A stretch of 54,882 nt of DNA, filler included, from Circinaria calcarea (lineage: Eukaryota), in assembly GCA_051942165.1 (NCBI GenBank). It is 2 parts of 2 records of this genome, joined end to end, with 100 filler letters (N's around TTAATTAATTAA, not from the genome) between each part and the next. Parts side by side here need not be neighbours in the genome. Positions count along the whole stretch, not along the records: positions 1 to 27,470 come from JAVECS010000066.1; 1 more part is not named here. One strand, given 5' to 3'. The position numbers and the translations under genes are program-made. The notes below the pieces were generated by a model. It ran no database searches. It saw nothing but the letters and a program-made list of their open reading frames with translations, and had not been told where the DNA came from. Shown piece by piece: positions 1,410 to 26,500 of the stretch. Positions within the stretch are counted from its first letter, which is position 1. Every line of letters begins with the position of its first letter.

Positions 1410-4400
1410 TCATTTTTTTACCAACTGCGGCATTAGTATCCCCGTCGTAGCCACCTTATTGAGATACATCGCCACCAAACTGTGGAGTCCCATGCCTTGA
1501 GCCTTGGCCACCCACTCCGCAACCCCGAGTACCGTAAAATTCTCCCCGCTGTCCTGCTCCATCGCCGCCACCATGTTATCGATCGGGATCTGCAGCTCCC
1601 CGGATTCGAACATGTACGTGATGGACAAAGACGAGATACCCCCGGAGACGGCGCTGACGATTTCGGCCGCCACCTTCCCCACGGAGATGAAGTCGAATGT
1701 CCCACGCATGTATTCTGACTTGGGAATGGCCTTCATTAATCGGGAGTATTTCAGTAGGTTGCTCATAACGTCCAAGTCTGAAGCGCCGTCGCCGGTGATG
1801 GAGGATGGGCGGTGGATGACGAGTGGCATGCCAAACTTATCGCTGATCTGCTCGAGATATCGTTCCGAGGCCCATTTGGAGGCGATGTAGCCATTAGATC
1901 CGTCTCGAGGTGGTCGATACTGCTCCACCGAGACCTCTCCGTAGCTGGTCTTCCCCGATAGGTATGTGACGCTGGCGGTGGAGATATAGTGGAACTGTAA
2001 CCCATGCTCAAGACAAAGCTTGACCAGATCTTTGGTAGACTCGAGGTTGACGGGTTTAAGAGATTGATAGGTCTTCAGGAAAGAAACGTCAGCGCCGTTA
2101 TGGATGACCGCGTCTGCCTCGGCAAAAATGCTTGTCGCATCTTCCTCGGAAAGACCAAGGCGAGGGAGAGATTGGTTGCCGGTATGCACTGCCACCTTTG
2201 GAGAGTTAAACAGTGGTGGTAGGCGGCTCGGAACTTGGCGGACCCCAATACAGTGAATTTTTTCAATTGTTTCCTCTTCCATAAGTCGGCTTAACATAGC
2301 TTTTCCCAAAAAGCCAGTCGAGCCTGTCAGAACAACTACCCTTGGGATATCCGCCCCGAGGATGGTTATGTGCGGGAGATCCCCAGGCACTTTTACTTCC
2401 CTGTCCCAGTCAATCGGATCGCACTCAGGGGTCTGCGTAGTTGGAGTACTTGCTCCTGGAATATTTGTTGTCGAGAAATTCGAGGGCATCTGTTCGCTGC
2501 TATCTTGACCCTCCGGACCGTTTGTTCGTGGAAGGATCGATGACATTTGCTCCTCGCTGTCCCCATCATTGAACTCCTTTCCCAGTAACCGCGCCTTGCT
2601 GTCTATCCGTGATGCCATCCGCCCAAGAGTACTGACGTCGAATAGCTCAACCAAGGGCAAGTTTACCTTGAATGTGTTTGTGATGAGAGCCTGTAAGCTC
2701 ACTAGAAGCAAAGAGCTACCGCCGACCTGGAAGAAGTCCGCGCTCGAGTCGATTGAGAAGTGGTCGGAAACCTCTTCCGTAAGCACATCTTTCCAAAGCT
2801 GCCGCAGTCGTGTTTCGGTTTCGCCCAGCTGGGAGTCTGGATTGCTCGGCTGGCTCTGTGGGAGAGGCAATACACCAACAGAAATCCTGTCTAGCTTTTG
2901 CGAAGTGGTCAATGGCATCTTTTCTAGTGGAATGAACATTGTAGGACGCATATACTGAGGCACTGGAAGCTTCTCTTGTAATTCCCTCAGGAATGGATCG
3001 CGATTTTGGAGCATCTTATCTGGAGAGAATTCAATGTGGGCGACAAGGAATTCCGTTCCAGATGGGTTCGATCGGCGGACAGAAACAACTGCGTGCAGGA
3101 CGCGGCCATTGGTAGCTTGGACAATGGTAGCCTCAACTTCTTGCAAGTCGACCCGAAGGCCTCCTGGAAGCTTGACTTGCGTGTCGCCAACGATTCGTCC
3201 TTCCAAGGTCAGAGAGCCATCGCTGCCCAATCGGCCTCTATCTCCAGTACGATGCATCATAGTCCACCCTTGCGCGATGAAGTCTGGTGATGCAAAGGTA
3301 TTAGGTAAGAATCGTTGATTCGTAAGTTCCTCCATATGAAGATAGCCAGTCGCAACCCCTACTCCACCAATGACAACTTCACCTGGCATGCCAACCGGGA
3401 CAGGCTTGAGGTTCTCATCAACAATGTAGGCAGCGTAGTTTGCCCATGGCAGCAAGGCCGACGTCGTTCTGTCCCATTCGGCATCATCCGAGGCGTACGT
3501 AATATCTGATACATGTGAACAGAGCGTAGTTTCTGTGGGACCATAACAGTTAATAATTCGTAAGTCTGCCTTTCCCAACGCTCGGAACACTTGCTTCAGA
3601 CTTTGCGTAGCCTTTTCGCCGCCACAAAGACCTAGCCTCCACTGCGAGTTTTGTAGAGCTTCAGATTCACCAAATCGAAGCCAACTTATGTACTCGGAGG
3701 GAGTAGCACCTGTGACGGATATCCTTTCTAAGGAAATAATTCTTGACAAAGCAATCGGATCTCCACGTGCAGCTTGCGAAGCGATGTAGAGGGTCCCGCC
3801 AGTGCAAAGTGGCCAGAAGATTTGTGCTAATGACATGTCAAAGCTGAACGAAGCCTGCTGTAACACTATTTCCTTGTCGGTTTTTGAAAGCCACAGATCT
3901 GCAGCTGTTTCAACGTGGTTTCGGAACAGAGAATGCTTCATAACAATCCCCTTAGGTTTCCCTGTAGTTCCACTCGTATACAAGATGACCATTGTTCCCT
4001 CAGCGCTTGCGTAATTCGGCGTGATACTTGTGTTCGCGATGGAATCGGATAGCGTGGTGACATTAATCATCTTAGAGTTTGAGCCTAGGGCTTGAAAGTC
4101 GGCTTTGTTCGCCGTATCAACAAGAATAATGCTTGGTAAGCAGTCGCTGATAATAACAGCCAATCGCATTGTTGTTAGGCGTGGGTCCAAAGGGACGTAT
4201 GTCGCGCCTAGGCGCAGAATAGCCACCATCGAGCAAATCCAGTCTGTTGATGGCTCCTGGAATACTCCGATCCTCGATCCGGTCCCAATGTTGTTATCTA
4301 CTAGAGCAGCTGATATGACATTCGCGCGCGCTGCCATTTGGCTATATGTGAGGTAATTGCCAATCCCATCTTTCAGAGCGAGATCTTCACCATGCAGCTG

Positions 4401-7400
4401 AACCATTATATCAACGCGGTGTAGTAGGGTATCATGCCACTTAGGAGGGCAAACCGGGCCTATCAAAATTAAGTATTCGCGCAACTAAATTTAAAAATAT
4501 CATCGAACAGCTAATACTGACCATGCCCGAGCTCAAGAGCTTTCTTAATCTCCACCGACTCATATAAAGAGGGTCTACTGAGCCGCGTCGCCGGATTGCG
4601 GGAAAAGGCGTCTAGAAGATTAACAAAGCTACGCATCAATATCTCGCCATGGTTAGCGGTATAGAGCTCCTTTTGGACTGACATCCTGATTAGAGCGTCT
4701 CCACCGGCATTATCGACCACGTCAATACTGAGGTCATATGCAATCTGTCCGCCGTCAAACTCGGTCCATTCACAGTCACATCCGCAGAAAGTTCGACTTT
4801 CTGAGATACCTTGTCGGTAGTTAAGGAACACCTGGAAAAGGGGACTCTGGCTGGACGATCTAGGAACGTTGAGCTCATTGAGTAGAACGTCGAATGGTAC
4901 TTTAGAGTTGGCAAATGCTCGCGTCGTTTTACCCTTAGTTTCCTTGACCGCGTCCGTGAACGTCTGTGTAGTAGCTTGGCTTTTAAAGCGGATAGGAAGG
5001 AGGTTCAAGTAACATCCCAAGCTCAGGAGCACATCGCTTTCATTTCTATTTGCATCGGCGATGCCGATACACAGGTCATCGATATCCAAAAATCGAAGAA
5101 TCAGGGTCTTATAAACTGTCAGGTAGAACTGAAAAGGAGAGACCTTGAGTCTTTTGCAAGTTTCGTGGATTTGCGCGGACAAACCAGTGTTGACTCGATG
5201 AGATACCAAATGGGATCCATATTTTGTCAATGTCACGCGGGACTTTAACGTGGATAAAGGTAGGAGAGGAATCGGTGGAGGAGTATCGGGGAACTCTTTG
5301 CGCCAAAACGCAAGCTCTTCAGTCCATTTTCCGTCTCGATAGTCTCGCCTTTGTCTCGAGGCAAATTCCGGGTATTGGAGGACATGTGCGTTTGCAGAAG
5401 AAGTGAGATTATAACTCTTCTGCAGGTCAGAAAAGAATATCTCGAAACTAATGCCATCCATATTGATATGATGATATCCGAGCAGAATTTGGTGAGAATC
5501 GGGAGATAATGAAAGTAAAATTATTCTCATTGTCTGCCCTTTCTCAAGGTCATAGATATGCTCTTTCAAGCGAACATACTCTTTAGTAATCTCGCTGCTG
5601 TCAGAGATGTCTTTTCGCTCTAAGCGGAGAACCGAAGATTCAAGAACTCCCTGCATTGCTTGATGGTTTTCATCGGTAAAGAAGCGTGTTCGTAGAGATT
5701 CGTGACGTTGTCCAACAGCAGCAACCGCTTGAGCTAACTGATCCACACGGATACTCCCTTTCAGATGAATAGACGTGGTAACATTGAAGGTTGCCTGATC
5801 TTCGAGGTAGAACTTCAGGAACCAAAACCGCGATTGGCTAAAAGACATGGGCACCACTCTCTGGGCACAGCTCTCAGAGCCAGATGGTTTTGCAATCTCT
5901 TCGAATGAGGATATCGACAAAGAGGGAGAAGCCGCATTGAACGCGTCAACAGTGCTGCTATCGGAAGATGAAGCTGGGACTGAACGAACGAATGAAGACG
6001 TTTCGTGCACCGACGTAGTATTTGGCTTCTCGTTTGGCTCACGGCTTTTTAGTACTGGTTCACTAGTGATAGCAACCAAGCTTTCGCCTCGAGCTGGTTC
6101 TGAAGTTTGTTCCTTCACAGTACTGCTATCGAACTCTTTCATCGCGGAGTTGATAGGGATTTCCCTTGATCGAGGCACAGGTAGTGGTTCAGGCTTCTCA
6201 GATTCTATTGTATTATATGTTGAGCTGGAACCTGTGGTTACGTTTGGAATAAAGGCCGGAGGAAGTAATTCCTGGGCGCGGTGTAGCAGTTCACCAATGG
6301 TAGCGCCACTCAAGATCTTAAGGACGGGCATATCGACAGTCAACTCCTTGAGAAACCACGATCTTACATCAATTGCAACCAGTGAGTCAATACCCAGCGC
6401 GTCTGCACTCTGATTGATCATGTCTACGTCGGAAGCAGTTTGGAGTGTAGTTTGCAATCGTGCAATGAAGGAAACTTGAAAAGCGTTAGCTTAAGAATGG
6501 AGGATGTGATAAAGTAGACTTTACCTCTCAGGATCTTAGAGACCTCGTCGGGGGTAATGGCTTTTAGGAGTTGGTTTTTCACGGATACAGTAGCGGTAGT
6601 ATTGCCAGCCCTACTTAAATTGGTGGTATTTCGTTGAAAGACTAGATGCGAGAACAACGGGTTCTTATACCAAGTGATCTTCTCGTCCTCGCCTGCATAG
6701 AGAATCTGTAAACCTGTTGAGAACTCGGGGTTGGGTCCTGGTCGTGGAGGACTGGCTATAACTGCCTCAGCGAAAATCTGGTGGAAGTCCTGCTCAGACA
6801 TCCATAAATTGCCTACTTTGCGGAGGAACAGCTGTTGTGTTAGGGTTAATTCCCGTGTAACATACCCATTACCTACAATAGCGCCAACATAGACTGTTGA
6901 CGCTGCGAGGCCACGCTTCCTCCGTTGAGCAGCGAGACCAGCAAGGAACATGTTTGCCGCTCCATAAGCAGATTGACCTGGATTACCGGTGATGGAAGCC
7001 ATGGAAGATAGAAAAACGAAGAAATCGAGTTTGCTATCAGCAAATATCTCGTCAAGATAGATGCTTCCATCCACTTTTGGGTTTAATACTTTCTGCAATG
7101 TATGCATGTCCAGATCGAGGAACATGGTATCATGAAGGACCATAGCTCCATGGCAGACTCCAGCAATGGGCGGAAGATTACTGCAAATTTGCCGGTAGAC
7201 TGATTGAAGAGAGTCACGGCAAGTAACGTCACTAACATCGATTAGTTCATATCCCAGAACTGTTATGGCTATGACGGAGATACCTGAAATGTATTCTAAC
7301 CGTAGCACCAACTTTCTTGAAGCTGTTTAGCCATCTGGGATCGACTTTAGGATTGCGACTGGAAATGACAATATACCGCGCGCCGTGTGCGATCATCCAT

Positions 7401-10400
7401 CGGCAAAGCGAGAGGCCAAGCCCGCCTGTCAGGCCGACAAGCCAGTAGGTCCTATCCTTTTTGAACATGGGCTGCATGTCGACAGCCTCATATTTGACCG
7501 GTATATTAGAAGATGTCACCCAATTGACTAGCACCACGGGCCTGCTGGTCGTCGCTGTGTTTGGGATCATATTGAGTGACACCAGAGGGACATCCTGTAC
7601 CTCGGAAATGGGAAAGCTTGCAAGATGCATACGAGACGTTTCGAGTACATTCTCGATCAAACCGTTTGATATGGATGAACTGATGTACGCTGCTTGATGC
7701 GTAAGCATATCAAGGGTCTCAATACCGCACATGGCTGGAACATGGCTTGCGATACGGGTAGATGTGCTATTGTCTTCCCAGGACACAAAGCGTGAGAGTT
7801 TTGCCGGTAATGTTATCTCAATCATACGTTTGGTTGCGTGGGGATGTAGATATATCCATGTATCGTCTCTAACATCAGATTTAGTTGTGAGGAAAACCAG
7901 ACGTATATCGCGCGTGGCTGCTATGCTAACAAGTATAGCTGCAATGGTTTCGTTAGGCTCGAAGACCGCCAAAACATCTCCATTAGAGAGGTCAAAGAGA
8001 ATGGCTAGAGCAAGTAGGTGGTAGAACATGGCAAGTAGATATTCGACTGATTGCTCAGAGGAAAAGGGGCAAGCACTGGTCCAGGACCTAGAGACGTTGA
8101 GTAACGATGATTGGGATGTTGATAAGGTAATAAGCTGGTCGCCCGTTTTGGTGTTGATACCCAAAAGAAGAAACAAATAACCACTGGATCCGAACCTTAC
8201 AGATCTGAGAACCGAATGACTGATACAAATGTCGACACTATCATTGAGGCTTGTTTCTTGGAGTGGAACCAGGCCCGATTCATCTTGCATACTATATGTA
8301 GTACCCGAATATGATATTGTGATTGGAGAAATTTTAGGATCCATTTCTCTAGTGATGAGCCGACGTGATGAGTTATAACGATTATTCTGGGGTTTGCTGA
8401 GCTGTAGGCGAGGGATTAGATGCTGGCCTTTCTCGATTGCTATTTCTGGTTCAGTTGACCAGAGAAGATTCTCGAGTCGGCCTTGTTCCTCCCATACATC
8501 TGCCGCCACGAATCTGAGCATTGCTTCAGCCAAAATCGCTGCATCAGGTTCTTCGTCGAGATTGAAATCCATGTATTGGAGCCGGAGATGAACCATTTCT
8601 AATATTAGAGTTCGTCCAAAACCAACGACCATTTTCGCGTATGGATCAGCCTTTTTATATCCATGAGTAATCCATAGGACGTTCTTAGACCTCTCGAAAA
8701 GTTTTTGGAATCCTGCCAACTTCTCTTTGGTCATAGACTTGAAGATAGACTCATCGAGATCTTGCATGCACAAGACACTGCCTGCAAAAGAGAGTTCTCT
8801 TCTGTTCAGATCAATTAGCGATTCAAAATGCGTGATTTGACCACAATGCGGAGTCAATAAGGCTGTTACTATGGCAATGTATTGTGCAGTGTGCGGAGTG
8901 CTGCCACCAATGATCGCCAGCTGCCGGATGCTGAGGTCTGGTTCCGGCAGAGAGAGTGGGGTACGGAGGAAATTTACTCGATCATCCAAAGCCTGACTAG
9001 CAATGACAGACAATGGAAGTGGTAAGGCTTTGTGGTGCGGGACTATAGCGTCGATGCCAGAGAAGCCCGTCCTCTTTAACAATACTTCCCATTCCGCCAG
9101 ACCAACGCAAGGGGAAAATGTCCGTCCATCGTCGGTACCAAGCCACCATCCAGGTAGGCCACCAAAGATGAAGCCAAACCTCATCGGATCGTTATCAGTG
9201 ATTTCTAACAAAAGCAAATACCCACCAGGCTTGAGTAAACGCCGAACATTCTTCATTGTCTCTTCGAGATTAGCCGTGGCATGAAGCACTAGAGAAGCAA
9301 TGACCACATCATAGCCATACTCGGTATATCCTTGTTCTGTGACGGCTTTCTCAATATCAAGAGCTTTAAAGGTCATTTTTGATTCATATGCCTTGAAAAC
9401 TTCCTTCGCCTTTGTAAAAAAGCCAGTTGAAATATCGGTGAACGTATATCTTCTCCACATTAGTATCGAATAATGAAAGACGACGGAGGTGAGATACTGA
9501 CGAAGAGAAAGCCCCATCGAGTTGCTTCAAAATTGCTTTAGTCGCTCCACCAGTACCCGCACCTAGGAGAGAAGTTAGATTTCTGCTCACTAAGGAGAGC
9601 AGCGACGTTCCCTACCGATCTCCAATACATTCATATGAGGGTGACGGTGACCTATCTGTCTTGCCATGCGGGTCAACTTGTGCAGATACGGAGACATCCC
9701 AAGCGCCTGGACGTAGAAATCGTTCAACATGTTATCTTGAATCATTGGCTCCAACATTGTCAATTTGCCTAGGATCACTGCAGGCATGTTCTCACCAACA
9801 GCGTGCATTATCCTCAGATCAATGCTGTCGGGATGACTGTTATAAACTGGTGAGTCTAGATCCGAGACAGTAATGTAGTGGACGGATTTGAAATCACTGT
9901 ACCCCATTGTGTATACAGATAGCATATTGGATTTAAATGTAAACATACCTTGTGATGATATCCAGGATCTGATCATGAGTATCATTAATCCATTCCTGTT
10001 TTACAAATGGATGGTCTCCACTTGCGACGCGAGAGCACATATAGTTTATGTAATCAAACAGCTTTTTATGGTGCCATTCGCACTTCCCTCGATCTTCTGG
10101 GGTTGTTAATATCTGCAGATTTCGCAAATAGAAGTACGCAACCCGTTCGAGGGCAAAGCCAAGGTCATAGTACTCTTCAGTCTCCTCGAGGAGAAGCGAT
10201 TTGCCATGAGGGGAAGCAAAGTCCCAAACCGCCTCGGAAAAAAGCAGGAGATCGGTTGCCGCGGTGGCAGGCACCATAGGCTTGGTGTGCATTCCTTCGA
10301 GTTGGAGCATAGCATGTTGTCCCTCCTCAGGGTAGATATCAACATCACCATCAATCTGTGCCACGAGATCTTTACTAATGATGGAGCTGAAACGCAACGA

Positions 10401-13400
10401 TAGACCCTGGTCTGCATTGGACAGACATAAAGATGGATTAAGCCTAACTCGATCAATGCCCGTGGGAAGTTGAATTGACCGGAGCCTGCTATCGCCAGGA
10501 AAACAGTACGCGAGAAGAATTGATTGGATCGCCCCGTCCAATGCAGCCGGATGAATCATAAGCTTCTTGTCTGGATTAGTGCTAGCAGGGACCGATATTA
10601 AGCCTGTTGCTGTGTTTAGTTTTCTCTCGAGGGATGATAATGCCTTGAATGACCCTGAGTATCCGTACCCGAACTCTCCAAAAGATGTATAGAATCGTTC
10701 GGATTCAACCTCCATTAGTGCAAATTCCGGATCAGGCTTTGGCGGCAAAACAGCCAATTCTGTCTCTCCAAAGATTATTGTGATCTGCCCGTCGGCATTA
10801 AGCGATATGGGTCCTAATTCTTTGCTCGCAGCAGAGAAGAAACCGAACTTGGCACTCAGCACATCAGCTTGACGTTGAATATCGGTGAAGGCAAAGATTG
10901 TTTCGACTCCAGAATCTTCGTCATCAAATATCAGCGCTTGGCCAATTGTAAGATTCTCCAGCTCGATTAGCTTGATTGGCTCGTCTTTGGCAATTTCTCT
11001 GGCGGCCTCGATAGCTGTTGAGAGGTAACCCGCACCAGGAAAAACCATTTGGCCTTGGATACGATGGCCAGTGAGCCATGGCACCTCCCTTGGTAAAAGA
11101 AAGTTGCGCCAGCGGACCTGGTGATCTGAACTATCGTAGCATTTAGATCCAAGGAGCTCATGGGTAGGGTCCACTCGCCCGCGGAAAGCCTTCGAGATAT
11201 TAGATTCGTGCCAAAAGACTCGCTCATGGTCCCAAGAGTAAGTAGGTAGATTCTTCAGAGGGTTAGGAGCTTTCGCAGCTCCAACCAACATCTTATCGTA
11301 TCGAGCAAAATCGACAACTGATCTGCCAAGGGAAGACCATACAAAACCCAGACTACTTGAGAGTGCCTCAATGTCATTAGTGCCGCGATTTAAGACTCCC
11401 GTATAGAGAATTTTATGGCCTAAAACGTCTTGAATGATCTGAGTTGTTGGTCCTTTAAGGGCTGCATGGGGTCCTACTTCTATAGCAACATCAAAAGGCC
11501 CATGCTCGCCGATAGCATATTCAACTGCCTGCGAAAATAAAACCGGCGAAACCAGGTTGCTGTTCCAGTAGAGGTCGTTCATGTTTTCATCGACTTCAGT
11601 AATATCCTGTTGATAAACACTGGAGATCCACGAACACTCGAAACCAGGATTTACCGGACGTTGCACCTTAATGCCGCATGCTCGAAGAGACTGTATATAT
11701 GACGCGGAGCAGGCCGCCATGTGATGTGAGTGATAAGCCTTGTCAACTTTCAGCAGCCGAGCGAATCTCTTCTCCTCTTGAAAGACAAGTCGCACTTCTT
11801 CAATCGCATCTGCATCGCCGGAGATTGTTACACTGGCTCCCGAGTTGCTGGCTGCAACACAAACGCGTCCTTGAAATTTTCGTAGTCCGCAAAGTTCTTG
11901 AGCATCCTCATAAGAGGTGCCAACAGCAACCATAGACCCAGTTTGTCCTTTCGGACCTTGGGCTAAACGGAGATGGTAACCGCGATAATAAGCAATGCGG
12001 ATAGCATCATACGCGGAAATATACCCGGCGGCATACGCAGCACCAATTTCCCCCGAGGAATGACCAATAACCGCTACAAATCCGATGCCAGCACTTCGTA
12101 AAAGATCCACCAGTATTATCTGAACCGCTGTACAGAGCGGCTGAGACAGCGCCGCTTCACCAACACGGGAAGTTTTTACGCCCGCTAACAGCTCTTCCTT
12201 GAGTGACCAAGTCGGGCGATCTGCCGGTAGATCAGCCAGACTTTGCTCAAGACTTTCCACAATCCTCTGGACTGCTGGAGACACCATCAATTCCGCTCCC
12301 ATGCGAGCCCACTGTGCACCCTGACCAGTGAAAATACCCAGAATCCGTGGTGCAGGACCGTCTAAATTAGATCGCGGGCTCGTTAAAATAGCTGTAGTGC
12401 CTTTCCCCTCCACGAAAGCGTCGAGCTGAGAGCAAAGACTGTCGACAGTTAGAGCTGAAAAGGTAGCTTTGGTTGGGAAAGTTGTCCTTCGGGTGTTGAG
12501 GGTCCACGACAAATCACGAAGGTTCGTGGATTTCTCAGCCTTCAAATATGCCGAATAAGCGGCTACTGTTCTTGTGAGAGAGCGTTCCGAGATGGCTGAG
12601 AAATTAAAAGGCGTAAAGACACGGTTGTCGACGGGGGGAGGAGAAGGAGATCCCGAAACTACGGGTGGGTAACTTTCGAGGATTGCGTGGGCATTTGCAC
12701 CTCCAAATCCGAACGAATTTACACTGACTCTTCTTGGAGAATTCTGTTCGATTGCAGGCCAAGGCTGGGCAGTAGTGATGATTTTCAAGTGATCGTAAAA
12801 TGGCTTCACGGCTGAGGCGAGATTATCAAAGAGGCAGTTCGGTGGAATAACACCATTCTGTAGGGCTAGCGAGGCCTTGAGAACGGCAGCCAATCCAGCA
12901 GTGCCCTCGGTGTGCCCGATTACAGTCTTGATAGAGCCCACAAAAAGAGTATCGAGATTCTTTGACTGTGTATTAAGCTCGTTTTTAGCTGTGGATCGAG
13001 GTCCGAAAAAAGCTGTGCTGATAGCTTCACTGGAAGATAAGTTAGAGACAGATAAGTGCTGAATTCATATAGATACCGAACTGACCTCTCCACGGGGTCT
13101 CCTGCAGGTGTCCCCGTGCCGTGAGCCTCGAAATATTGCGGGCGATCGCACTTCTTGCTCAAATCCAAACCTGCTTTTGCATAAGTAGCCTCGATGAGAG
13201 CAGCTTGCGCACTTGCGCTCGGCATCGTGATTCCCTTCGTCCTTCCATCTTGATTAATGCTCGTCTCTCGAATGATACACTCGATATGGTCGCCGTCCTC
13301 CAGCGCGGCACTTAAAGCCTTCAAGACTACAGAAGCAATACCATCTCCTCTAGCATAACCATCTGCCTTCTCATCCCACATCCGAGACCGTCCGCTGGGA

Positions 13401-14083
13401 GATAACATTTTCAGCTTACTCTCAGCAATATATTGCTCCGGTCCAAGAAGAAGGTTTGCCCCCGCTGCTATAGCAACGCGAGATTCTCCTGATCGAAGCA
13501 ATTGAACAGCTTGATGAACAGCAACAAGACTGGAGGAGCAAGCAGTATCAATAGTCATTGATGGCCCCCGCCAGTCAAAGAAATATGATATGCGATTAGA
13601 CATTATACTTCGCGCCGTACCTGACGCAAAATAGGTGGGAAAATAGTTAGTATCGCGGCCTAAAAGATCGGCATAGTCGGCACACATTAAGCCCACGTAT
13701 ACTGCAGTCTGAGAACCTTGTAGCTCATCAATAGTGAGTCCAGCGGCTTCAAGACTTTCATAGACTGTTTCGAGAAGAAGTCGTTGTTGAGGATCGATTG
13801 AATGGGCCTCGACCGGTTTAATCCCGAAAAATTGAGCATCAAAAACACGATGGTCCTCTGTAAGGAAGTATGAGTGTCGGACGTTACTGGTCCCATGATG
13901 CATATTGTCTGGATGATAGAAACCATCAACGTTGAACCGATTAGGAGGAATTTCGCTTTGGACATCAGCAGGGTCACGCAGCAACTCCCACAATTTCGAT
14001 GGCGTGTTAGATCCGCCGGGAAAACGACACCCACTACCAATGATGGCAATAGGCTCATTTCCTCTTGCGAGTTGAGGTGCCAT
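1410..14083 (-). CDS. Hybrid iterative PKS-NRPS, KS-AT-DH-cMT-ER0-KR-ACP-C-A-T-R (multi-exon)
   Basis: Consecutive ORFs joined by GT-AG introns. [46 protein letters not shown] and HPAALD; cMT LEIGAGTG (split by an intron) and [83 protein letters not shown]. Confidence 0.97.
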
Positions 14084-14410: not shown

Positions 14411-14420
14411 CCGAGTCCGA
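14411..14420 (-). promoter_or_regulatory. TCGGACTCGG motif upstream of PKS-NRPS (putative Zn2Cys6 site)
   Basis: ccgagtccga on +, about 330 bp upstream of the ATG; identical copies lie upstream of the other two locus genes. Confidence 0.65.
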
Positions 14421-14825: not shown

Positions 14826-16595
14826 TCAAGGGTCCCACTTTCTCGACTTGAACGCAAATTTCGTCTCGAGCCCCGGAGCCTGTGAGCCATTTGGTAGCGA
14901 GACCTTGGCAGGCCTTGACTCACCCTTTGCAAACATGAAATCGTAGTTCATAATAAGATGGGCCAGGCCGATCTTAATTGTACTGTTTGCAAAGAGACGT
15001 CCTGGACAAGCCATACTCCCATCGCCCCAACCCGGTGACTCAGCTCCCAAGCTTGCAAACTGGTATCGACTCTCCTTTCCGGGCTCCTTGCGGAGCTCAT
15101 GATAACGCATTCCGTTATACTGCTCGGGTTTGTCCCATAATTCAGGGGAATTATGGATATGGTGTGCATCGACACAAACAATTGTCCCAGCAGGAATTGT
15201 AGGGCCAATCGAGAGCTTTGTCGGGCTTCTTAGTAGACGGTAAAGGACGACTGTCTGTTGCATCAGAAAGTCACATCCGATTCCGACGTTCAAAGTAGAG
15301 AAAGCACCTACGGAGACTGAAGGGATTTGTTCGCGACGACTCTCTCATAACACTATCCATTTTCCTTAGCTCAGCTAAATGGGTCTTGGGCAGTTTGCCA
15401 TCCACCACCACTTCTCTCAGCTCCTGGCGCAGAACTTCGATCAACCCCGGATTTGAGGCCAGGTCGTTCATAATGTTATAGAAAGTGGCGGCGGTGGAAG
15501 GGGTTGATTCAAAGGTGACTATGATATAGTCGTCTGTCAGTTGATTTAGGGTTGCTTCGCCTGGCTTGTAGCGGGACATAAGGGCGGCTGTGAAGGGAAC
15601 TTTCCCGTCCTCGGTCAACTGTAATAGACCTCTCTTATCATCGCTATTCATGTATTGTTCCATATCTTTTTTCACGACCGGTGCAAGAACACTCTTCATT
15701 CTTCTTCTTGTTATCACGGCGGGTAAGAAGATCAAAGGAGCCGCCAGAGGTTGTAGCATCCGGGGAATGACACTAATGGCAAAAACACCAGCCATAACGG
15801 CCATTGGAAACCGCTCCACAAGCTTAAGCCATTTTTCGTTCTTCCCCAGCTCTCTACCGACGAATGAGCAAGCATTTGTAGTAGAAACCATTCTCATTAA
15901 AGCAGGGAATAACTTGATCTCCTTCCACTGCGGGCAATCACCAATTACAGCATCGGCCGCCGATCTAGTATCCTCCTGCCGTAAAGGAACCTTGATGGGA
16001 ATACTCCGAGCCAAATCAACACCGATCGTTTTCAGCAGCGCCGATGTTTCTTTACCAGCAGTTGTCCAAGTTCCAAAGTATATCTTATCGAAAAAGTCTT
16101 GGGCCGACGCGATATGGGATGGCAGTCGCTTGATTTCGTCAAATATAGCCGAAGGATAGACGACATATGGAATTCCTTGTGTCTTGATTATATATGGAGT
16201 TTCGGGATACTAGATCAACTTTAGGCTCAAAATATCATCGAGGACTATGAAGCAGGCCCACCGACCTTTGCTGCGCCTTGGTCCAAAATCTGTTGGAAAT
16301 CAAGCTTATGCTGCTTTGAGCCTCCGACAATTGGTAAGTTCAACTGTTTGAGAGTCTTCGGCTGCATGAAGAAGCGCCAAACAGTAAACAGCCCTACTAT
16401 TAGAGCTCCGGATGCCGCGAGTACCAGAGTCAAAGTTGACAGCTGCCGTAGGAAGTGTGCGGCTAGGAATTTCGTTATTTGCCATTTTGTTAGTCGCACA
16501 GGCGCAAGTGATTGTCGAATAATCGCAAATTGCTCGAATACATCGTACTCGAGTACTTTGAAGAGCAGGTGCTCAAGTATATTGTGGCTAGACAT
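14826..16595 (-). CDS. Cytochrome P450 monooxygenase (secondary-metabolism type; 3 exons)
   Basis: N-terminal hydrophobic anchor; K-helix ESSR in KMDSVMRESSRTNP; PEQYNGMRY (PERF equivalent); heme motif WGDGSMACPGR; introns at about 16211-16266 and 15250-15310. Confidence 0.95.
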
Positions 16596-16800
16596 TTTGA
16601 GAGGTTAAATCTAAGGTAGCAATAATTAACCCAATTAGCCAAAAGTAGGACGATAGCTGTAAAACACAAAGCTTTGGCGAAGATCGATCAAGCTTGCAAT
16701 TCCTCGTGGCTTATGGCTCGGCATCGTTCTATGCTCTTGGATGTTCCGATGCAGGCCTGTTCCGGTGCACCGAATCTCGTGTAATAGCTTAACGTGGCCT

Positions 16801-16810
16801 CCGAGTCCGA
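16801..16810 (-). promoter_or_regulatory. TCGGACTCGG motif upstream of P450
   Basis: ccgagtccga on +, about 205 bp upstream of the P450 ATG. Confidence 0.65.
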
Positions 16811-18188
16811 TTGGCAGCCAGTGGTTCCGGCAAAGGCGCAACATCCGCCGAAACCCCGAAGTTTCTTTGGATAGTAAGTCTGGTCCTGAAGACAAAGGTA
16901 ATGTACATTAGTAGCTATACCGATGATAGCTCACTGTGAAGCTTCTCTTTCACAGCCACAATTCTGGTGCCTGTACGCCACAACTCTTTCTCGTAGGAGT
17001 GCGTAAACGGCGTCAAGTCTGAAAACTACGCTGATAAGGTCCTAAGTCGACCAGATCCAGCTTCGTCATGTATAGCAGTAGCTAGCCAGCGGGGTGTTCA
17101 GCTCAAGATGTCTGTTTCTTGGAGTCGCGTTAATTGGATTGTCATTGAGTGGCAGTATGACTCGGCTCGCGTATCTCGAAATCAACACCTCAGGCATTTC
17201 AGCCATATTTTAGGAGGCTGTACTTTTGGGCTAGTTTAGATGTTTCGTATTCGACCTTTGTTAGCCATCATGGTGCCAGCGGATCATCCCATGAGAGGTG
17301 GAGGGCGACGAGAGAAGCATCGGCTACCCACTTGCAACCTTGACTAAATAAGCTAAGTCGGCTTTAATTTGCACATCACCTTGACCCCCTTCTGCAATTA
17401 CCAACCGCCTTTATATTTTACTTATCACTCTATATACTCTAGCAGCTTTATTATTTGCTTCGTGGTTACGCTTGCAGCGTGCTTCGACTACGCTTTCGAT
17501 TATGTGAAAGGGTAGAGCTCTTGTTCCAGCCTGGGACTCAATGCTTTCTCTCACGGAGTATGATTCCGATCTTTATTCTACAATCGACATTTACTGACTT
17601 ATCGGACTTTCTAAGTCTTACCTATGCTCCTATTGCATCTTAACCCGGTCACTATGGGCATGCCGGTGGGGTAGAATCTGGGCTATAGTATGGAGGATGA
17701 TGTTTTGGCTAGAAGTGAAACTCTCAGCAAAGGCTTCTACGCGTTACTAAGCACTCAGTACGTATGTGAATAAGCTTCATGCTACGTGACTGGGCTTTAA
17801 TCTGGGTACAAGATGCTATTGTAGATATTATTGCCAGCGTCACCGCGGTCTGTGTGCTACGCGGGCGGAGCAGGAGATGGAGTGCCTTTATCTCGTTCTT
17901 GTCATGCTCTTAGCAATGAAAGGCTGCCCTTGCAAAGAGCTACATTCCTAGAGAAAGCTGTGTATAATCTTGCAAGCGTGGTGGTACAACGTTATCCTCG
18001 GTTTCTGACGTACTTAGATTTTCTCGTCCTGCTTTAGGCCTACAGCATGTTCTGTGGGCAGATATGCGGTACAGCATCCCATATACTGTAGTGCACCGTG
18101 TATGCTACCCCGAATGGCTCCGGCTGACACGCTACCGAGCCTTGCACGGTAGGTTGAGAAACGGCGCCCCGAAAATTAAGTAATCAAC

Positions 18189-18198
18189 TCGGACTCGG
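18189..18198 (+). promoter_or_regulatory. TCGGACTCGG motif upstream of HR-PKS
   Basis: tcggactcgg about 140 bp upstream of the ATG at 18338. Confidence 0.65.
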
Positions 18199-18337
18199 TC
18201 AACTCCAGTCGGCCAGCTAGTGGGCAAGCAGATGGCAACAAGTCTTTGTTAGTTGGTTGATAACATGTGCACCAGTAGTCTGGCTTTTTCTTCTTTGAGT
18301 TTTTTTGAACAACGCTCTTTGCATACTACATTTCAAC

Positions 18338-21300
18338 ATGGCCATAACAGAACAAGCCGGCGTCGTTAGCGGCCAGCCCCAGCAGCCGTCCAACGAGGCT
18401 CTCGAGCCCATTGCCATTGTGGGCATGGCCATGCGGCTTCCCGGTGGGGTACGTAATGCAGAAGAATTTTGGGATATGTTGGTGAAAAAGAAGGATGGTC
18501 TTTGCAGAGTGCCCAAAGATCGCTACAATATAGATGGATTCTATAGTACTACTACAAGGCCAGGGACCTTGCAAACAACTGAGGGTTACTATCTTAAAGA
18601 TGTAAACCTGCAGCACTTTGATACCTCGTTCTTCTCAATAAGCAAGAAGGAGCTGGAACGGCTCGATCCGCAACAGCGCCAGTTATTGGAGGTTACCTGG
18701 GAGTGTATGCAGAACTCGGGAGCAACTGGCTGGCAAGGCAAGAACATTGGCTGCTTTGTTGGCGTGTTTGGTGAGGACTGGCTCGATCTCAACGCCAAAG
18801 AGACACAGCACGTGGGAGGGTACCGTGTCACGGGATACGGCGACTTCGTTCTAGGCAACCGACTATCTTATGAATATAATCTGCGTGGCCCAAGGTAATA
18901 GCTTTCTTTGCTTCCTCTCGCAACGTTGCCTGTGGTAACTTGGATATAGTATGACCGTCAAGACCGGCTGTTCTTCATCCTTGATCTGTTTACATCTTGC
19001 CTGCGAGGCTATTCGCTCAGGTGACTGCTCGTCTGCTATCGTTGGCGGTACCGGCGTAATAACTTCGCCAACGATGGCCCTTGCATTAACTGATCAAGGT
19101 GTTCTATCCTCGTCTGGAAAGTGCAAGTCCTTCGATGCATCTGCAGATGGATACGGTCGTGGCGAGGCTATCAATGCAATTTATATCAAAAAACTAAGTG
19201 ATGCTCTTCGAGATGGCGACACCGTCCGCGCTGTCATTCGTTCTAGCGCGACGAATTGTGATGGCAGAACACGAGGGATGCTTAGCCCGAGTTCCGAAGC
19301 CCAAGAAACTCTGATTCGACGTGCTTACAGCGTTGCTGGTATTTCTGACTATTGCCGGACAGCCTTCGTCGAGTGCCATGGTACAGGTACTTCTGCTGGT
19401 GACCCGCTGGAGTGCGCAGCAGTTGCGAATGTATTCGGAGAGGGGGGCGTTTGGATCACTTCGGTCAAACCAAATGTTGGACACTCGGAAGGCGCTGCTG
19501 GTATCACGAGCGTGATTAAGGCAGTGTTGGCTCTTGAGAACCAAGTGGTCCCACCCAATATCTTTTTCAAGGATCCCAATCCCAAAAGTATGTCTGGCTC
19601 TCCTCAAAGTTCTATGCTGACGCCTTTTCTCCAGTACCATTTGAAAAGGCTAAACTACGCGTTCCTACCAAGGTCGAACCGTGGCCCCAGGGTCGCTCCG
19701 AGAGGGTAAGCGTGAATTCTTTTGGAATTGGGGGTGCGAACGCCCATGTGAGTTGCGAATTCAGTGCTATCGCATCATGGTGTGTTTAATGCTTCAAGGT
19801 CATCATCGAATCGTCTCGCGAAAACAATGCGATAGCTACCTCTTTGGATGATAGCAACATCACCCGCCGGGACCATCCCCATCTTCTTCTCTTTTCCGCC
19901 AGTAGTGTTCCGTCGCTAGAAGCAAGTCTTGAAAAGTACAAGAGCTATATGAAGAGGTGTTTGCCGTCTCTAAATGATCTATCCTACACTTTGGCAATTC
20001 GACGAGATCATCTCTTATATCGTGCATACGCTGTCACGAACTGCCCATCTTTCCTAGAAGGCTCCCCTATTCAAACGGCAGGCTCGATATCACGCATCGT
20101 CTATGTTTTTACTGGCCAAGGAGCCCAGTGGCCGGAGATGGGAAGGTCTTTGCTCGATCACAATCCTACATTTCGAGATACAATTAGGAAGTTAGACAAG
20201 AGTTTGAAAACACTTTCCGCTGCATTAACCTGGACTATTGAGGGTATGAAACGTACTTCTCCAAAGTTAAAAAATAGTTGGTTCTGACTCGACATAGATG
20301 AGTTGCGTAAACCTGCTTCAACCAGTCAAGTCCAGAGGGCTGAATTCTCTCAGCCACTCTGCACCGCAGTCCAGATAGCATTAGTCGACGTTCTTCATAA
20401 GTGGGGTATTGAGCCAGGTGGAGTTGTAGGCCACTCATCCGGTGAGATCGCTGCTGCCTATGCCGCTGGTGCCATCACCGCAGAAGCAGCGATAGCTACT
20501 GCGTCCTTCCGTGGCATTACCACAAAGCACTCTACCAAGATCGGCGCAATGGCAGCAATTGGGCTTGGACGTAAGGAGGTTTCAGGATTTTTAAAACTTG
20601 GTGTCGTCATTGCTTGTGAGAATAGTCAGAGCAGCGTGACCCTCTCTGGAGACTCACAACAAGTCCAAGAAGTGGTGGGACAAATAAGGAAAGAACGGCC
20701 AGATGTCTTAGCTCGCATCCTGCTTGTCGAAAAAGCATATCATTCTCGTCAGTTGCTGGTTTCTTTTGTCGAAGGTCTAGCTGTTCACTAGTGTCCTCAC
20801 AATTTCTAAAACCATTGACAGCAATACTGACATCTTACTTAGATCATATGAAAGAGTTTGGGGAAAATTATCAAGAACACCTCGAGTCCGTGGTTAAATG
20901 TGTTACGCCGAGAGTTCCTTTCTATTCTAGTGTCATGGGCCGCAAGTTATCTGATACTGATAGGCTCGGGCCTTTGTATTGGCGGCAAAACCTGGAAAGT
21001 CCTGTCTTATTCGATTCAGCTATCCGAGCGGCCCAGTGTGATCAGAAGGGGAATACACTGTTCCTCGAAATTGGACCTCATCCAGCACTGAAAGGCCCCT
21101 TGAAGCAAATCCTTCGGGAGGCTGGTCAACCTGGCGACGTTCACGTGGGGTCGCTCACCAGAGGCAACGATTGCGAAGATAGTCTTCTCCAGCTAGCTGG
21201 AAATCTTTTCCTGAATGGGGTCACACTCGACTATAGTATGATTTCGTTACATGGAGCAGTTCTAACTGATCTACCGGGCTATTCCTGGGTTTACGATATG

Positions 21301-24300
21301 GAGCACTGGAATGAGCCCCGCCTGGCACGCGACTGGAGGTTCCGTGAGCATGCACCCCATGATCTACTTGGCACCGCAGTGATCGAGGGAAATAACGAAC
21401 CTAGATGGAGAAATATGCTGTCAATCGACAGCGTTCCCTGGTTAGCTGATCATGTAATTGCGGATCAGGTACTCTTTTGTGGTGCCGGCTATATTGCTAT
21501 GGTGGGAGAAGCACTTCGCCAAATCTCGGGAGTCGAGGTCTACAGCCTTAAACATATCTCTCTATCCTCGGCTCTTATCCTTGAGCACGGAAAACCTATA
21601 GAAATCTCGACCAGTCTCTCACATGCTCATTTAACAACTTCACTTGACTCTCCGTGGTTTGAGTTTCAGATCGCTTCCTACAACGGTAAAACCTGGACAA
21701 AACACGCTTCAGGTCAGGCTAGATCATTGGTTGATAAGTCGGTCAAGATTGATGCTCCTCGGCCAATTCTATCCTTGCCCAGGAAAGTATCTACTATCGA
21801 GTGGTATAACGTCATGAAACGAGTGGGGCTCAGCTACGGGCCAGCGTTCCGTCAAATGGACCACATTTCAGCTGCAACTAATAAACAAGTAGCAGTCGCA
21901 ACTATTTTCAACCCTGAAAGACCCGGAGAGTCATCATATGCCTTGCACCCGGCAACTATTGATCAGTGCTTCCAGCTCCTGACAGTTGCTGCATTTCAAG
22001 GTCAAGGACGAAAATTTCAGCAACTTGCGGTTCCGACCTATATCGAGGAGCTTGTGATTGTCCCTGGTACACAAGAAATACATGTTGAGGCAATCTCAGC
22101 CCTGTCTATCAAAGGAGCTTTCACAGGAGACGTATTGGCGCAAAGCATCGAAGGTACTCTTCTGCATATGAAAGGATTTAAGTCATCCCCACTTGAGACT
22201 GGGAACTCAGCGGTCGATGACGTCCGCCTCATCACACAAATCGAATGGAAGATTGATAGCGACTTTTGCGAACTGGACAAACTTATGAAGCCCTGCAAGA
22301 TATCTAGGAAAGAATGGCCTCTTCTAGAAGAACTTTTCTTACTCTGTATTATGGATCATCAGGATCGGATCAGTCCCTCAGTGAATACTCCAAATCATCT
22401 TCGCAAGTTTCTTAACTGGATGCAGATGCTAGAAAATTCTGTGGAGTCTGGGACTTACAACGTTCTTTCTGAAGTCAAAGCACTCCGTGCACTAAACTCG
22501 TTTGAAAGACTGGCTCGCATTCAACATATCGTCACGGAGGTGCAGATGACCGAGTTCGCTGTAGCCGCTGTCGCTATTAAGCGGTTATTCGACGCGGCTG
22601 GTTCAATATACGAAGGTGAAACAAATCCCTTAGATCTGTTGATGAAAGATAACCTGCTTCCTGATCTTTACACTGCCGTAGACTCGGGCAATTACAGTGA
22701 AGCCTTCAAAGTGCTCGCGCACAAAAAGCCGCGTCTTAGGATACTTGAAGTCGGCGCTGGAACAGGTGGTACTACCGCAAAGATCTTTGAGGCTCTAGTA
22801 TCAACCTATGCAGAACGAATGTACGCAGAGTACACCTATACGGACATCTCTTCCGGATTCATGACATTTGCGAAAGAAAGGTTCAAGAATCATGAAAATG
22901 TCACATATCGTGTCCTTGATATTAGTCAAGATCCATCCGAGCAAGGGTTCGAGAAAGGGGCTTACGACCTCATCATCGGCTCCAATGTAGGTTATCTTTC
23001 TACCTTTCTAACAACTATATGCCTAGTCTGATATTTACGGTATATTAGGTTGTCCATGCTACTCCGTCTCTACAGATGACCTTGAAAAACCTGCGAATGC
23101 TACTACACCCCGGAGGTCACTTGTTTCTCCAAGAGCTCTGCCCCGGTAGGTCGATTAGTTATCGATATGGTGAAATTTGGTATCTAACATTGATATAGAC
23201 ATGAAGTGGATTAATTATATTATGGTAAGACCTTTGTGATATTGGAGGAAATCTCGATATTATAAAATGCTTTAAAGTTGAAAGTTTCCTTGATCGTTAC
23301 GCTGACATCTCATTCTAAGGGATTCCTTCCCGGATGGTGGCTCGGACATGACGATAATCGCTCCAATGAGCCTTATATAATGCCGGCCCGTTGGTCCGAA
23401 GAACTTCTCTCCGCAGGATTTTCGTCCCCGAATGCTATCGTATACGATGACATTAAGCCATATCACCTCAGTGCAAACATTATAGCCTCGCCGGCAAGTG
23501 AGGCTATACTTCCCAATAGAGTCACATTGCTATCTCACTCCGAAAGTGGCCCAGGAGTCCATGAGACTAGAGCATGCTTTGAAGATTTTGGCATTGCGGT
23601 CGATATTTGCCTTTTCGGTCAGGTCCCTCCCCATTGTCAGGATATCATTTCGCTCCTTGATCTTCAAGAACCCATATTACATAGTATCTCTGAAGAGGCT
23701 TTCTCAACTTTCACAAAATATCTACTTGCACTCGACACGTCAATGCTTTGGGTCACTCGGGCTTCTCAAGTCAATTGCAAGGATCCTCGAGCAGCCATGA
23801 TACTTGGCATGGCGAGGTCGGTTCGAAACGAGCTCTCACTTGGCCTCTTCACTGTAGAAGTCGATAGCGTCACACCTACACCAATGGTAGCAAAGGCCAT
23901 ATTCGACATTGTTCGAAGAATTCATTCGCCAGAGAGATGTGACAAAGAAATGGATCCTGATTGGGAATACGCAATTGTGAACAGTGAAATCCAAGTGCCC
24001 CGGTTGCACTGGGAAGCTATGAAGTACTCCATGGCACAACGCCCAGGCGAGAGCCTGAGCGCCAATAAACGTATCACTGTCGGAAAGACTGGCCTTTTGC
24101 ACACGATGCAATGGAGCGAAGAGGATTTGGAAGGCCCTAAGGATAATGAGGTAATCGTGAAGGTCAATGCTGTAGGGTTAAACTTCAGGGTATGTTTTTT
24201 CAAGTCTTTTGAGGTCTTCGCTAATATCTCTCGAGGATGTACTTATTGTTATGGGTGTTATGGACGATAGCCCTACTGAGCTCGGCCTTGAAGGCTCTGG

Positions 24301-26500
24301 AGTTGTCCAAGCTATAGGTCCCGAAGTTAAACACCTAAAGGTTGGCGATCGTGTTATGTTCATGTCTAGTGGATGCTTCACTACCTGCAAGATTCTAACA
24401 GAGGTGGAATGTGTAAAGCTTGATGCCACTCTCAGTTTTGAGAAAGCTGCAGCTTTACCATGCGTTTACGGAACAGTCATTCTAGCGCTACTCGAGAAAG
24501 GTAATTTACAAAAAGGCCAGGTACTAGAATATGATCTGAATGCTTATAAGAATCTTGCTGAATCTGATATTTAGACGGTTCTTATCCATTCAGCGTGTGG
24601 AGGCATTGGGCTCGCCGCTATTCAAGTCGCCAAGATGATGGGAGCCGTGGTAGGAGTATCATGTCTTCGAAGGATAACTGCTAACAAGAAAAGGTTTACT
24701 GCACGGTTGGAAATGAGGAGAAAATCGAGTACCTAATGAAGAATTATGATATCCCGCGAAAAAATATCTCTAATTCTCGCGACTTGTCATTTGTTGCCGA
24801 TATTATGTGCTTAACTAATAATAGGGGTGTCGATATAGTGCTTAACTCACTATCTGGAGAGCTTCTACATGGGTCTTGGCAATGTGTAGCTGAATTTGGG
24901 GCAATGATTGAGATTGGGAAACGGGATCTAAGAGGTAGAGGACACCTAATCATGGATGTTTTTGAGGCCAATCGGACATTCTATGGCGTGGACCTCTGGC
25001 AGATAAGCCGAAAGCAACCCGAGAAAGCAAGATCGTGAGCTATCACCCACGTTAATATTAGATGTATGGCTGATTAGTTCGTTATGAAGACTAATGCAAA
25101 AGTGCATGACATACCTCCAAGCCGGCGCGATCGAACCAGTCGTGCTTGCAAAGATATTTGAAGCCTCTAGTATCCAAGATGCATTCAGATTCATGCAAAA
25201 AGGGCAGCACATTGGAAAGATCATCGTTAGCATGCCGAACGAGTCAAGAGATCTTGGATGCGCTGCAGTCCCTATTAAATTCAAATTGCGATCTAATGTC
25301 AGCTACTTATTGGTTGGAGGATTGGGTGGCTTAGGACGAGCTGTCTCCACATGGATGGTTGAGAGTGGTGCACGTCATATCATATATCTATCGCGATCGG
25401 CAAAGGAGACTGGGGGTACACATTATTTTCTCAATGAGTTACGGAGCCAAGGATGTCAGGTGCAAATGGTCGCTGGCAGTGTGAGTAATTTTGCTGACGT
25501 TGAAGCGGCGGTGAAGAAAGCTTCAATGCCGATCGCTGGAGTAATCAACATGTCTATGGTTTTGAAGGTAGAGAGATTCTCTCCATTAAAATGTCATTGC
25601 TGACCATCTAAGGATGTCTCCATCCGTGAAATGACCTTTGAGCAGTGGAAGGTTGCTGTGGAACCTAAAGTTCAAGGAACATGGAACCTACATCATGCTA
25701 TATCTTCAAAACTGGATTTCTTCATCCTATTCGCATCGTACAGCGGCATTGCGGGGCAGTGGGGCCAAGCGAATTATGGAGCCGCAAATACATTCCTCGA
25801 TGCTTTCGTACAATATCGGCACAGCAAGGGTTTAGCAGCATCTGTCATTGATGTCGGTATTATGGGAGATGTGGGCTTTGTTTCGCAGAATACTGATATC
25901 TTGGAACATTTCCGAACCTCGGGTATGCACCTTCTACGAGAACAAGATCTATTGGATGCCATGGTTCTAGCTATGAGAAGATCCCAACCGTGTTCAAAAG
26001 AAAGTCATACCACAAGTTACAACAACCCGAGTCAGATTATCCTAGGTTTCCGAACCACGAAGCCCATATCCGATCCAAATAATCGAGTTGCATGGAAGCG
26101 GGACCCTCGGATGAGTTTCTATCACAATCTCGACAGCTTATCGACTCTTTCTATAAGCACGTCATCATCGAATGAAGACTTAAAAGGACTTCTCGCGTCA
26201 GCAGTATCACAGCCAGTGGTCTTGACCCAAAGCGACAGCATTGAAATAATAGGTACATCGATCGCCTCGACACTTTTTGATTTTCTGCTCAAGCCACAAG
26301 AGGAGCTGAACTTGAACCAGTCGCTTAACTCCCTGGGTGTAGATTCTTTGGTCTCGATGGAGCTGCGTAATTGGATCCGTCAGCAGCTTGGTGTTGAAGT
26401 TAGTGTCTTGGACATTATACACAGCCCTTCGTTGCTTTGTCTAGGGAATATTGCTGGGGAGGCTTTGCTTGCTAAGTACCAAGTTGCTTTAACTGCGTGA
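18338..26500 (+). CDS. Highly reducing iterative type I PKS, KS-AT-DH-cMT-ER-KR-ACP (many introns)
   Basis: [43 protein letters not shown] and HPATID; c[54 protein letters not shown]. The introns inspected restore the reading frame. Confidence 0.96.

Follow-up and report, generated by a model that had tools for sequence, protein, structure and literature searches.

A cytochalasan-type synthetase and cytochrome P450 beside a putatively co-regulated highly reducing polyketide synthase in Circinaria calcarea

The stretch of Circinaria calcarea DNA analyzed here (54,882 nucleotides from assembly GCA_051942165.1; hereafter the window) carries three biosynthetic genes between positions 1410 and 26500, namely a polyketide synthase fused to a nonribosomal peptide synthetase (PKS-NRPS hybrid), a cytochrome P450 and a polyketide synthase of the highly reducing type (HR-PKS). 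Each gene is preceded by an exact copy of the same 10-bp word, and the remains of an FSH1-type serine-hydrolase gene lie beyond the HR-PKS, shortly before a gap. The features of the locus are as follows.

1410..14083, minus strand: PKS-NRPS of the cytochalasan clade (4,078 aa; KS-AT-DH-MT-ER0-KR-ACP-C-A-T-R), 8 exons at 14083-13086, 13029-9949, 9836-9616, 9562-9502, 9449-7284, 7231-6525, 6474-4522 and 4459-1410
14411..14420, plus strand: 10-bp promoter word, copy 1, 328 bp upstream of the PKS-NRPS start
14826..16595, minus strand: cytochalasan-type cytochrome P450 (550 aa), exons at 16595-16266, 16209-15312 and 15250-14826
16801..16810, plus strand: 10-bp promoter word, copy 2, 206 bp upstream of the P450 start
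18189..18198, minus strand: 10-bp promoter word, copy 3, 140 bp upstream of the HR-PKS start
18338..26500, plus strand: HR-PKS (2,468 aa; 14 exons, 13 introns; KS-AT-DH-MT-ER-KR-ACP) of the broad LcsB-like group
27006..27322, plus strand: FSH1 serine-hydrolase pseudogene, recognized by phmmer, the Pfam assignment of a relative, tblastn and a three-frame view
27471..27570, no strand: assembly gap of nominal size, written as 44 N, a 12-bp spacer and again 44 N, 970 bp past the HR-PKS stop

The initial annotation of this DNA had described a PKS-NRPS and an HR-PKS with their main catalytic motifs and one P450 between them, and gene models, Pfam domains and active-site residues agree in showing three real and intact genes. 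All introns of the three models are of the GT-AG type (44-112 nt), and no model contains an internal stop; the PKS-NRPS has seven such introns, of 50-112 nt. Its domain order in Pfam is KS-AT-DH-MT-KR-ACP-C-A-T-R, without a recognizable enoylreductase (ER) domain, and its catalytic residues are found in KS (Cys182/His321/His372), AT (Ser657), DH (His988/Asp1164), KR (Tyr2265), ACP (Ser2442), C (His2747/Asp2751), T (Ser3645) and R (Tyr3920/Lys3924). The combination of an inactive ER with a terminal reductase, as in cytochalasan synthetases, is thereby present at the level of both domains and residues. The tyrosine and lysine of the R domain are also kept in all 46 aligned relatives, and their retention in the terminal domain fits reductive release of the product. 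The P450 has two introns, Pfam support, an ExxR motif at residues 400-403 and the heme cysteine at position 491; an alternative start at 16485 was dropped as out of frame, and 16595, which is backed by homologues, was taken. The HR-PKS displays the full KS-AT-DH-MT-ER-KR-ACP set together with its catalytic residues (KS Cys193/His329/His364, AT Ser631, DH His938/Asp1108, KR Tyr2228, ACP Ser2418). Its ER is the sole ER domain in the window and has an intact nucleotide-binding motif, and its DH motif has Cys947 at a position occupied by proline in 33 of 33 aligned relatives.

By sequence, the hybrid groups with the cytochalasan synthetases. Its nearest relative is an uncharacterized protein of Lobaria immixta (MCJ1261274), with 76% identity over 4,079 columns; identity is 63% to a Venustampulla protein, 60-61% to Geoglossum and 60% to Hymenoscyphus albidus, at full length 58% to Aspergillus sclerotioniger and 56% to A. 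heteromorphus, and 50% to both FfsA and PhmA. A quick KS-AT tree places the window and Lobaria proteins together as the sister of a hybrid clade from A. sclerotioniger, A. heteromorphus and A. saccharolyticus (SH-aLRT 97). This tree has 49 rows (46 hybrids out of the 120 matches listed, the window protein and two HR-PKS outgroups), in a sample that leans toward the cytochalasan family and leaves out CcsA and PoxE themselves. A structure search returned PsoA as the nearest solved hybrid and yielded no information on the substrate.

Published work describes conserved ccsA homologues in the three Aspergillus species (PMC6854747). A. sclerotioniger produces the phenylalanine-derived sclerotionigrins and proxiphomin and possesses one cytochalasan cluster, and its cluster (asc) and that of A. 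heteromorphus (ahe) encode a PKS-NRPS, a trans-ER, a hydrolase, a Diels-Alderase and two P450s (PMC13281438). In the full-length identity and sister position of its hybrid, in the adjacent P450 (62-63% identity) and in the conserved Tyr/Lys of the R domain, the window resembles these systems, yet beyond the hybrid it has only one P450 from this complement, and has in its place the HR-PKS and the dead FSH1 gene. FfsA/FfsD of A. flavipes and PhmA of Parastagonospora nodorum share the domain order and are 50% identical to the window proteins (hybrid and P450), but they fall into a separate subclade and have a different pocket.

The P450 strengthens this affiliation. It is 62-65% identical to P450s that adjoin related PKS-NRPSs and 50% identical to FfsD in Swiss-Prot, and in all six genomes that gave both proteins, when ten hybrid and ten P450 clusters were looked up, the PKS-NRPS and P450 accessions are consecutive. 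As judged from these sequences, the window has here the tandem of hybrid and P450 that is conserved among cytochalasan clusters. The P450 is probably of the macrocycle-oxidizing CcsD/FfsD-like type, a function suggested by its likeness to FfsD, by matches labelled CcsD and by the published assignment of CcsD. The homologue search covered proteins of 171-546 aa, a range that orthologues of 550 aa would escape, so that the missing match in Lobaria carries no evidential weight.

The substrate pocket of the A domain sets the hybrid somewhat apart. Nine pocket positions were assigned by motif offsets, and the assignment is supported in that 8 of 46 relatives show the code published for CcsA. The window pocket is identical to that of Lobaria at all nine positions, differs from that of CcsA at four, and has small residues at two positions. 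It is plausible, from these residues, that the altered A domain takes a different and perhaps larger substrate; fungal pocket codes are described as insufficient and as poor predictors of the substrate (PMC4994942). Five further uncharacterized hybrids (P0086, P0087, P0096, P0110 and P0149), which belong to the same family and come in several cases from lichens or earth-tongue fungi, likewise depart in their pockets from the characterized members compared.

Scanning of metagenomes with the P450 alignment gave nine loci, of which L001 and L003 are copies of L002. The latter, whose hybrid is 63% and whose P450 is 59-66% identical to those of the window, has the same tandem of P450 followed by hybrid, and upstream of it a gene of unknown function, a Diels-Alderase, a trans-ER and a second P450; L004 carries a Diels-Alderase, a Zn2Cys6 regulator, a transporter, a hydrolase and a trans-ER. 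None of the nine loci contains an HR-PKS, with the restriction that only L002 and L004 extend about 10 kb upstream. In the window, the HR-PKS occupies the divergent position upstream of the P450, where helper genes lie in the related locus. L002 (1-17458) and L004 (1-20885) are themselves uncharacterized cytochalasan-type clusters in metagenome contigs, and L002 also includes, at 8599-9168 between the Diels-Alderase and the P450, a cytochalasan-type cluster gene of 189 aa with no Pfam match.

Neither Pfam analysis of the window's open reading frames (ORFs) nor queries with the L002 and L004 proteins revealed a trans-ER in the window. The same holds for an alpha/beta-hydrolase (best E value of the L004 hydrolase 1.3; the FSH1 relic belongs to another family) and for a Diels-Alderase (best E value of the L002 and L004 proteins 0.26), and in the intergenic DNA no remnant of a trans-ER, Diels-Alderase, hydrolase, regulator or transporter appeared among the tblastn matches listed or by tblastx. 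The cytochalasan core is described as hybrid, trans-ER, hydrolase and Diels-Alderase (PMC8403587), CcsA without its trans-ER is reported to give no product (PMC4994942), and the hybrid clades with reductive release are said to require the hydrolase as well (PMC7421883). Because three of these helpers are absent from it, the window alone fails as a complete cytochalasan cluster, although its core pair fits one. As CcsA needs its trans-ER, a hybrid that is still maintained would imply a trans-ER elsewhere in the genome.

The shared promoter motif reported in the initial annotation is borne out. Exactly one 10-mer is common to the three upstream regions, whereas none of 100 dinucleotide shuffles gave such a word; its exact copies in the 54,882 bases are limited to those at 14411, 16801 and 18189, and all three have the same orientation relative to transcription. 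We take the word to consist of two half-sites of the Zn2Cys6-regulator kind. In DNA between or upstream of genes in L002 and L004-L007, matches with at most one mismatch number 7 in 9,517 bp, versus 0.58 expected (0 of 100 shuffles; 5 sites after merging tandem copies), and 9.6 kb of control coding DNA held 2 further matches. The enrichment of the word in cytochalasan-type intergenic DNA makes it most likely a candidate site of the cytochalasan regulator, one which the HR-PKS carries as well. The HR-PKS would then probably share the cluster regulator and be switched on with the other two genes. The shared word supports co-regulation but fits the capture of an old cluster promoter and recruitment into the pathway alike, and does not separate them; adjacent megasynthases can act independently (PMC8403587). 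Among the open-access papers listed, none names a site of this kind in its title or abstract opening. Near the left end of the window lie two tandem arrays (147-233 and 1153-1200, with periods 8 and 12), the first of which holds a copy of the word with one mismatch at 208; such arrays might serve a regulator as sites, either for a gene beyond the left end of the window or for one since lost. Indices of repeat-induced point mutation and third-position GC content of the window gave nothing decisive.

The HR-PKS has a history of its own. Its closest relatives are MCJ1261328 of Lobaria immixta and a further copy (59%), followed by proteins of A. sclerotioniger (56%) and A. heteromorphus (55%), and the 30 best relatives span 52-59% identity. 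With LcsB, the leucinostatin HR-PKS of Purpureocillium lilacinum, it shares the domain set, the broad group and 53% identity over 2,018 aligned residues, yet it branches outside the 25-row clade that contains LcsB (in a FastTree analysis only), and no separate NRPS, ligase or aminotransferase adjoins it. KS-AT identity to Lobaria is 66% for the HR-PKS versus 83% for the hybrid, so that the two did not diverge in step. Unlike the window, Lobaria has its nearest HR-PKS on a different contig from the hybrid. When relatives of the two synthases were matched by eye, their contigs differed in length in 11 of 12 species; in the twelfth they share one 5-Mb contig. The initial annotation had named homologues unlinked in related genomes as evidence against a joint pathway, and this is largely the situation of the HR-PKS, whose unlinked relatives lower the chance of true linkage, as far as they are orthologues.

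A close relative of the locus is preserved in one DNA run from a rock metagenome (X1), which contains 22% of the sampled window words. Its contigs tile positions 7500-27470 in window order at about 95% identity, with a divergence of 3.8-5.4% on gene-bearing contigs versus about 12% in the right flank, and a hybrid stretch of 3,642 bp is without gaps. The 12 indels among those listed all lie outside the three coding regions (24 more rows fall beyond the listing). The lower divergence of the genes suggests that they are still under selection. A single contig spans 16628-26430, reaching to 33 bp upstream of the P450 start at one end and taking in almost the entire HR-PKS, which makes an assembly artefact an unlikely source of the pairing; contigs meeting at 16628-16640 overlap by 13 bases only, and no single contig bridges the P450 coding sequence and the HR-PKS. 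X1 represents one study, and the conservation applies to a short evolutionary distance. Two further runs (X2 and X3) yielded short conserved pieces only. Around 26507-26604, X1 contigs contain 0.6-1.5 kb unlike the window, and one appears to run about 2.2 kb past 27470 into the gap region; X1 may hold further genes in these stretches.

The right flank proved richer than the non-genic DNA that the initial annotation had seen on both sides. Downstream of the HR-PKS, a 61-residue piece at 27064-27246 matches a protein (P0369) with an E value of 8.7e-11 in phmmer, and this protein is assigned to Pfam FSH1 (E 1e-22). The relic has frameshifts near its 5' end and near 27210-27230, and diverges before the C-terminal histidine region; in a tblastn back-comparison it lacks some 115 residues of the central part, among them the region of the nucleophile, and the N- and C-terminal parts stand in different frames. 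On this sequence evidence the FSH1 gene is a pseudogene, with no intact frame holding the catalytic serine and histidine. Three X1 indels (27013, 27027 and 27061) bring its 5' part into one frame, so the gene probably died recently in the window lineage. Direct Pfam scanning of the pieces gave no recognition, their protein Atlas matches were all below 0.8, and two other phmmer matches of the piece (P0370 and P0371) were dismissed as chance, being cadherin-like repeat proteins. FSH1-type hydrolases are known from PKS clusters and have their fold in common with LovG (PMC10512364), and by analogy the esterase may once have released the chain of the HR-PKS. Given this relic, the gap at 27471-27570 and a visible left flank of only 1,409 bp, the cluster may extend further on either side, and the label of a minimal locus is not borne out.

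Taken together, these data are read here as a split and remodelled cytochalasan-type cluster, probably in a lichen-forming ascomycete to judge by its nearest matches, accompanied by a co-regulated HR-PKS/esterase unit, an interpretation to which we assign roughly even chances. The PKS-NRPS, by the chemistry of its family, would build a methylated polyketide chain, join it to an amino acid and release the product reductively as an aldehyde. The HR-PKS, with its own FSH1 release esterase, would have moved into the divergent-promoter position held by other cluster genes in relatives, where, under the site of the cluster regulator, it would probably be expressed with the other two genes and make a reduced, methylated chain of its own. 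The esterase would have decayed afterwards in the window genome. Several observations weigh against this interpretation. The three genes stand together in X1 and share their word, an arrangement that a single pathway would explain no less well than two. The helper genes that would be located elsewhere in the genome are not found in the window. At five of its nine positions the pocket departs from the one in A. sclerotioniger and A. heteromorphus, so that the product need not be a standard phenylalanine cytochalasan, and the two hybrids in that comparison (P0089 and P0094) were equated with the published asc and ahe synthetases by species and clade rather than by accession. The HR-PKS and PKS-NRPS of Lobaria have locus tags only 54 apart, yet occur on contigs of different length, and the unlinked HR-PKSs, at 52-59% identity among the 30 best, may be paralogues rather than orthologues.

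Collaboration of the two synthases was the central proposal of the initial annotation, and part of it survives: the pairing is unusual, the word is shared and the gene order is kept in X1, although the hybrid and the P450 turn out to be a standard cytochalasan tandem. In a true collaboration, the chain made by the HR-PKS and released by FSH1 would enter the hybrid product, either as the skeleton of an unusual amino acid that the altered A domain loads or as an ester or starter unit of a cytochalasan-like core, which we consider unlikely, though worth serious attention. The identical word and orientation on all three genes speak for it, as do the conserved order in X1, with the 5' part of FSH1 in one frame there, and the residues that are smaller at two pocket positions than in phenylalanine-using relatives. 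The similarity to LcsB points in the same direction, as the LcsB cluster has an aminotransferase and an NRPS using a long-chain amino acid, but the role of LcsB itself is unproven, a deletion mutant reportedly never having been obtained (PMC4946873), and the fungal codes are weak predictors (PMC4994942). Moreover, the Lobaria pocket is the same while the nearest HR-PKS lies on another contig, the P450 is of a cytochalasan kind that adjoins the hybrid in genomes with no HR-PKS seen beside it, and the esterase is dead while the hybrid is intact. The closest precedent is the oxaleimide pathway, in which a reductive-release hybrid, PoxE, also adjoins a separate HR-PKS, PoxF, and a P450; PoxF supplies the amino-acid backbone together with PoxM, a P450, and PoxL, an aminotransferase (PMC8902786), and the pathway also needs a trans-ER, a hydrolase and a Diels-Alderase (PMC7421883). 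Compared by description rather than by the Pox sequences, the window has from the set of PoxL, PoxM, trans-ER, hydrolase and Diels-Alderase only a P450, of cytochalasan type, and in the ORFs of the window that were scanned, Pfam turned up neither an aminotransferase nor an acyltransferase nor an acyl-CoA ligase. The oxaleimide-type feeding put forward in the initial annotation accordingly keeps the promoter word on the HR-PKS and the departure of the pocket from phenylalanine-using relatives, and lacks its aminotransferase. A more specific version, in which a lichen-lineage cytochalasan synthetase with an altered pocket recruited the HR-PKS and esterase into its regulon, and a long-chain amino acid of polyketide origin, or else an acyl chain, enters a cytochalasan-type scaffold, seems to us decidedly unlikely.

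The locus may instead be a decaying remnant that yields no final product, in which the helpers have been lost outright and the large genes remain intact only through recency. The FSH1 pseudogene, the absence, among the matches listed for the window, of any trace of the three helpers or of a regulator, and the change from proline to cysteine in the DH motif of the HR-PKS would all be accommodated, but about 21 kb of coding sequence without a stop or frameshift would not, nor would genes that diverge two to three times less than the flank in X1 while the listed indels avoid their coding regions, and we regard decay as very improbable. Less probable still, and in our view highly improbable, is a self-sufficient trio that dispenses with a trans-ER, giving an unreduced polyene pyrrolinone or linear amide or borrowing reduction from the ER of the HR-PKS. 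That ER is the only one in the window and its nucleotide-binding motif is intact, and the fusarin and pseurotin hybrid clades do work without a trans-ER, but clusters of the present clade carry one, CcsA alone reportedly gave nothing, and reductive-release clades also need a hydrolase (PMC7421883 for the clades). A further argument applies to borrowed reduction in particular. We know of no cis-ER that acts on the chain of another synthase.

Under the preferred interpretation of a remodelled cluster with a co-regulated HR-PKS/esterase unit, the locus may make a new variant compound but does not amount to a demonstrated new type of pathway. Neither a cytochalasan cluster with an HR-PKS nor a lichen cytochalasan cluster appeared in the titles and abstract openings of the papers listed from a mainly open-access literature. 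Cytochalasans serve as standard tools for blocking actin and as drug leads, and their activity varies with the amino acid and the chain; a synthetase with a pocket unlike those of the characterized members compared, apparently from a lichen-type fungus, is a mining target for a new amino-acid variant. The locus would also capture remodelling under way: the core pair has been retained, the helpers have been relocated or lost, a foreign HR-PKS bears the word of the cluster and its esterase is dying. The 10-bp word, as a candidate site of the cytochalasan regulator, can be used for locating the missing genes in the genome. Should collaboration be true, oxaleimide-style logic would have arisen a second time, in the cytochalasan clade, and been caught at promoter capture.

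The remaining sequence of the window adds little to the cluster. Intergenic ORFs of at least 45 aa gave no Pfam match (0 of 52). Just past the HR-PKS stop, the stretch 26509-26807 is bounded by a 16-bp inverted repeat, 94% complementary and 267 nt apart, and here an X1 contig matches only 26507-26604, the rest being dissimilar; it is possibly a small non-autonomous transposon. Beyond the gap, a histone deacetylase, an oxysterol-binding protein, ING, Nas2, a Ras-family GTPase and further genes were found, all either of housekeeping type or without assignment, and they were excluded as cluster members. The histone deacetylase gene (27571-28885) apparently starts in mid-gene at the gap, and its proximity to the cluster may be a mere scaffold join. 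At 38618-40450 lies an ordinary gene for a protein with Rieske and pyridine nucleotide-disulphide oxidoreductase domains, presumably AIF-like. The gene at 45803-47992 encodes a protein rich in Ser and Thr that is probably secreted and contains repeats of a Cys-rich, PAN-like unit (a weak Pfam PAN_1 match), possibly a surface or adhesion protein, and three long ORFs (50620-52698, 52977-53963 and 54341-54880), assigned to no convincing Pfam family, complete the window.

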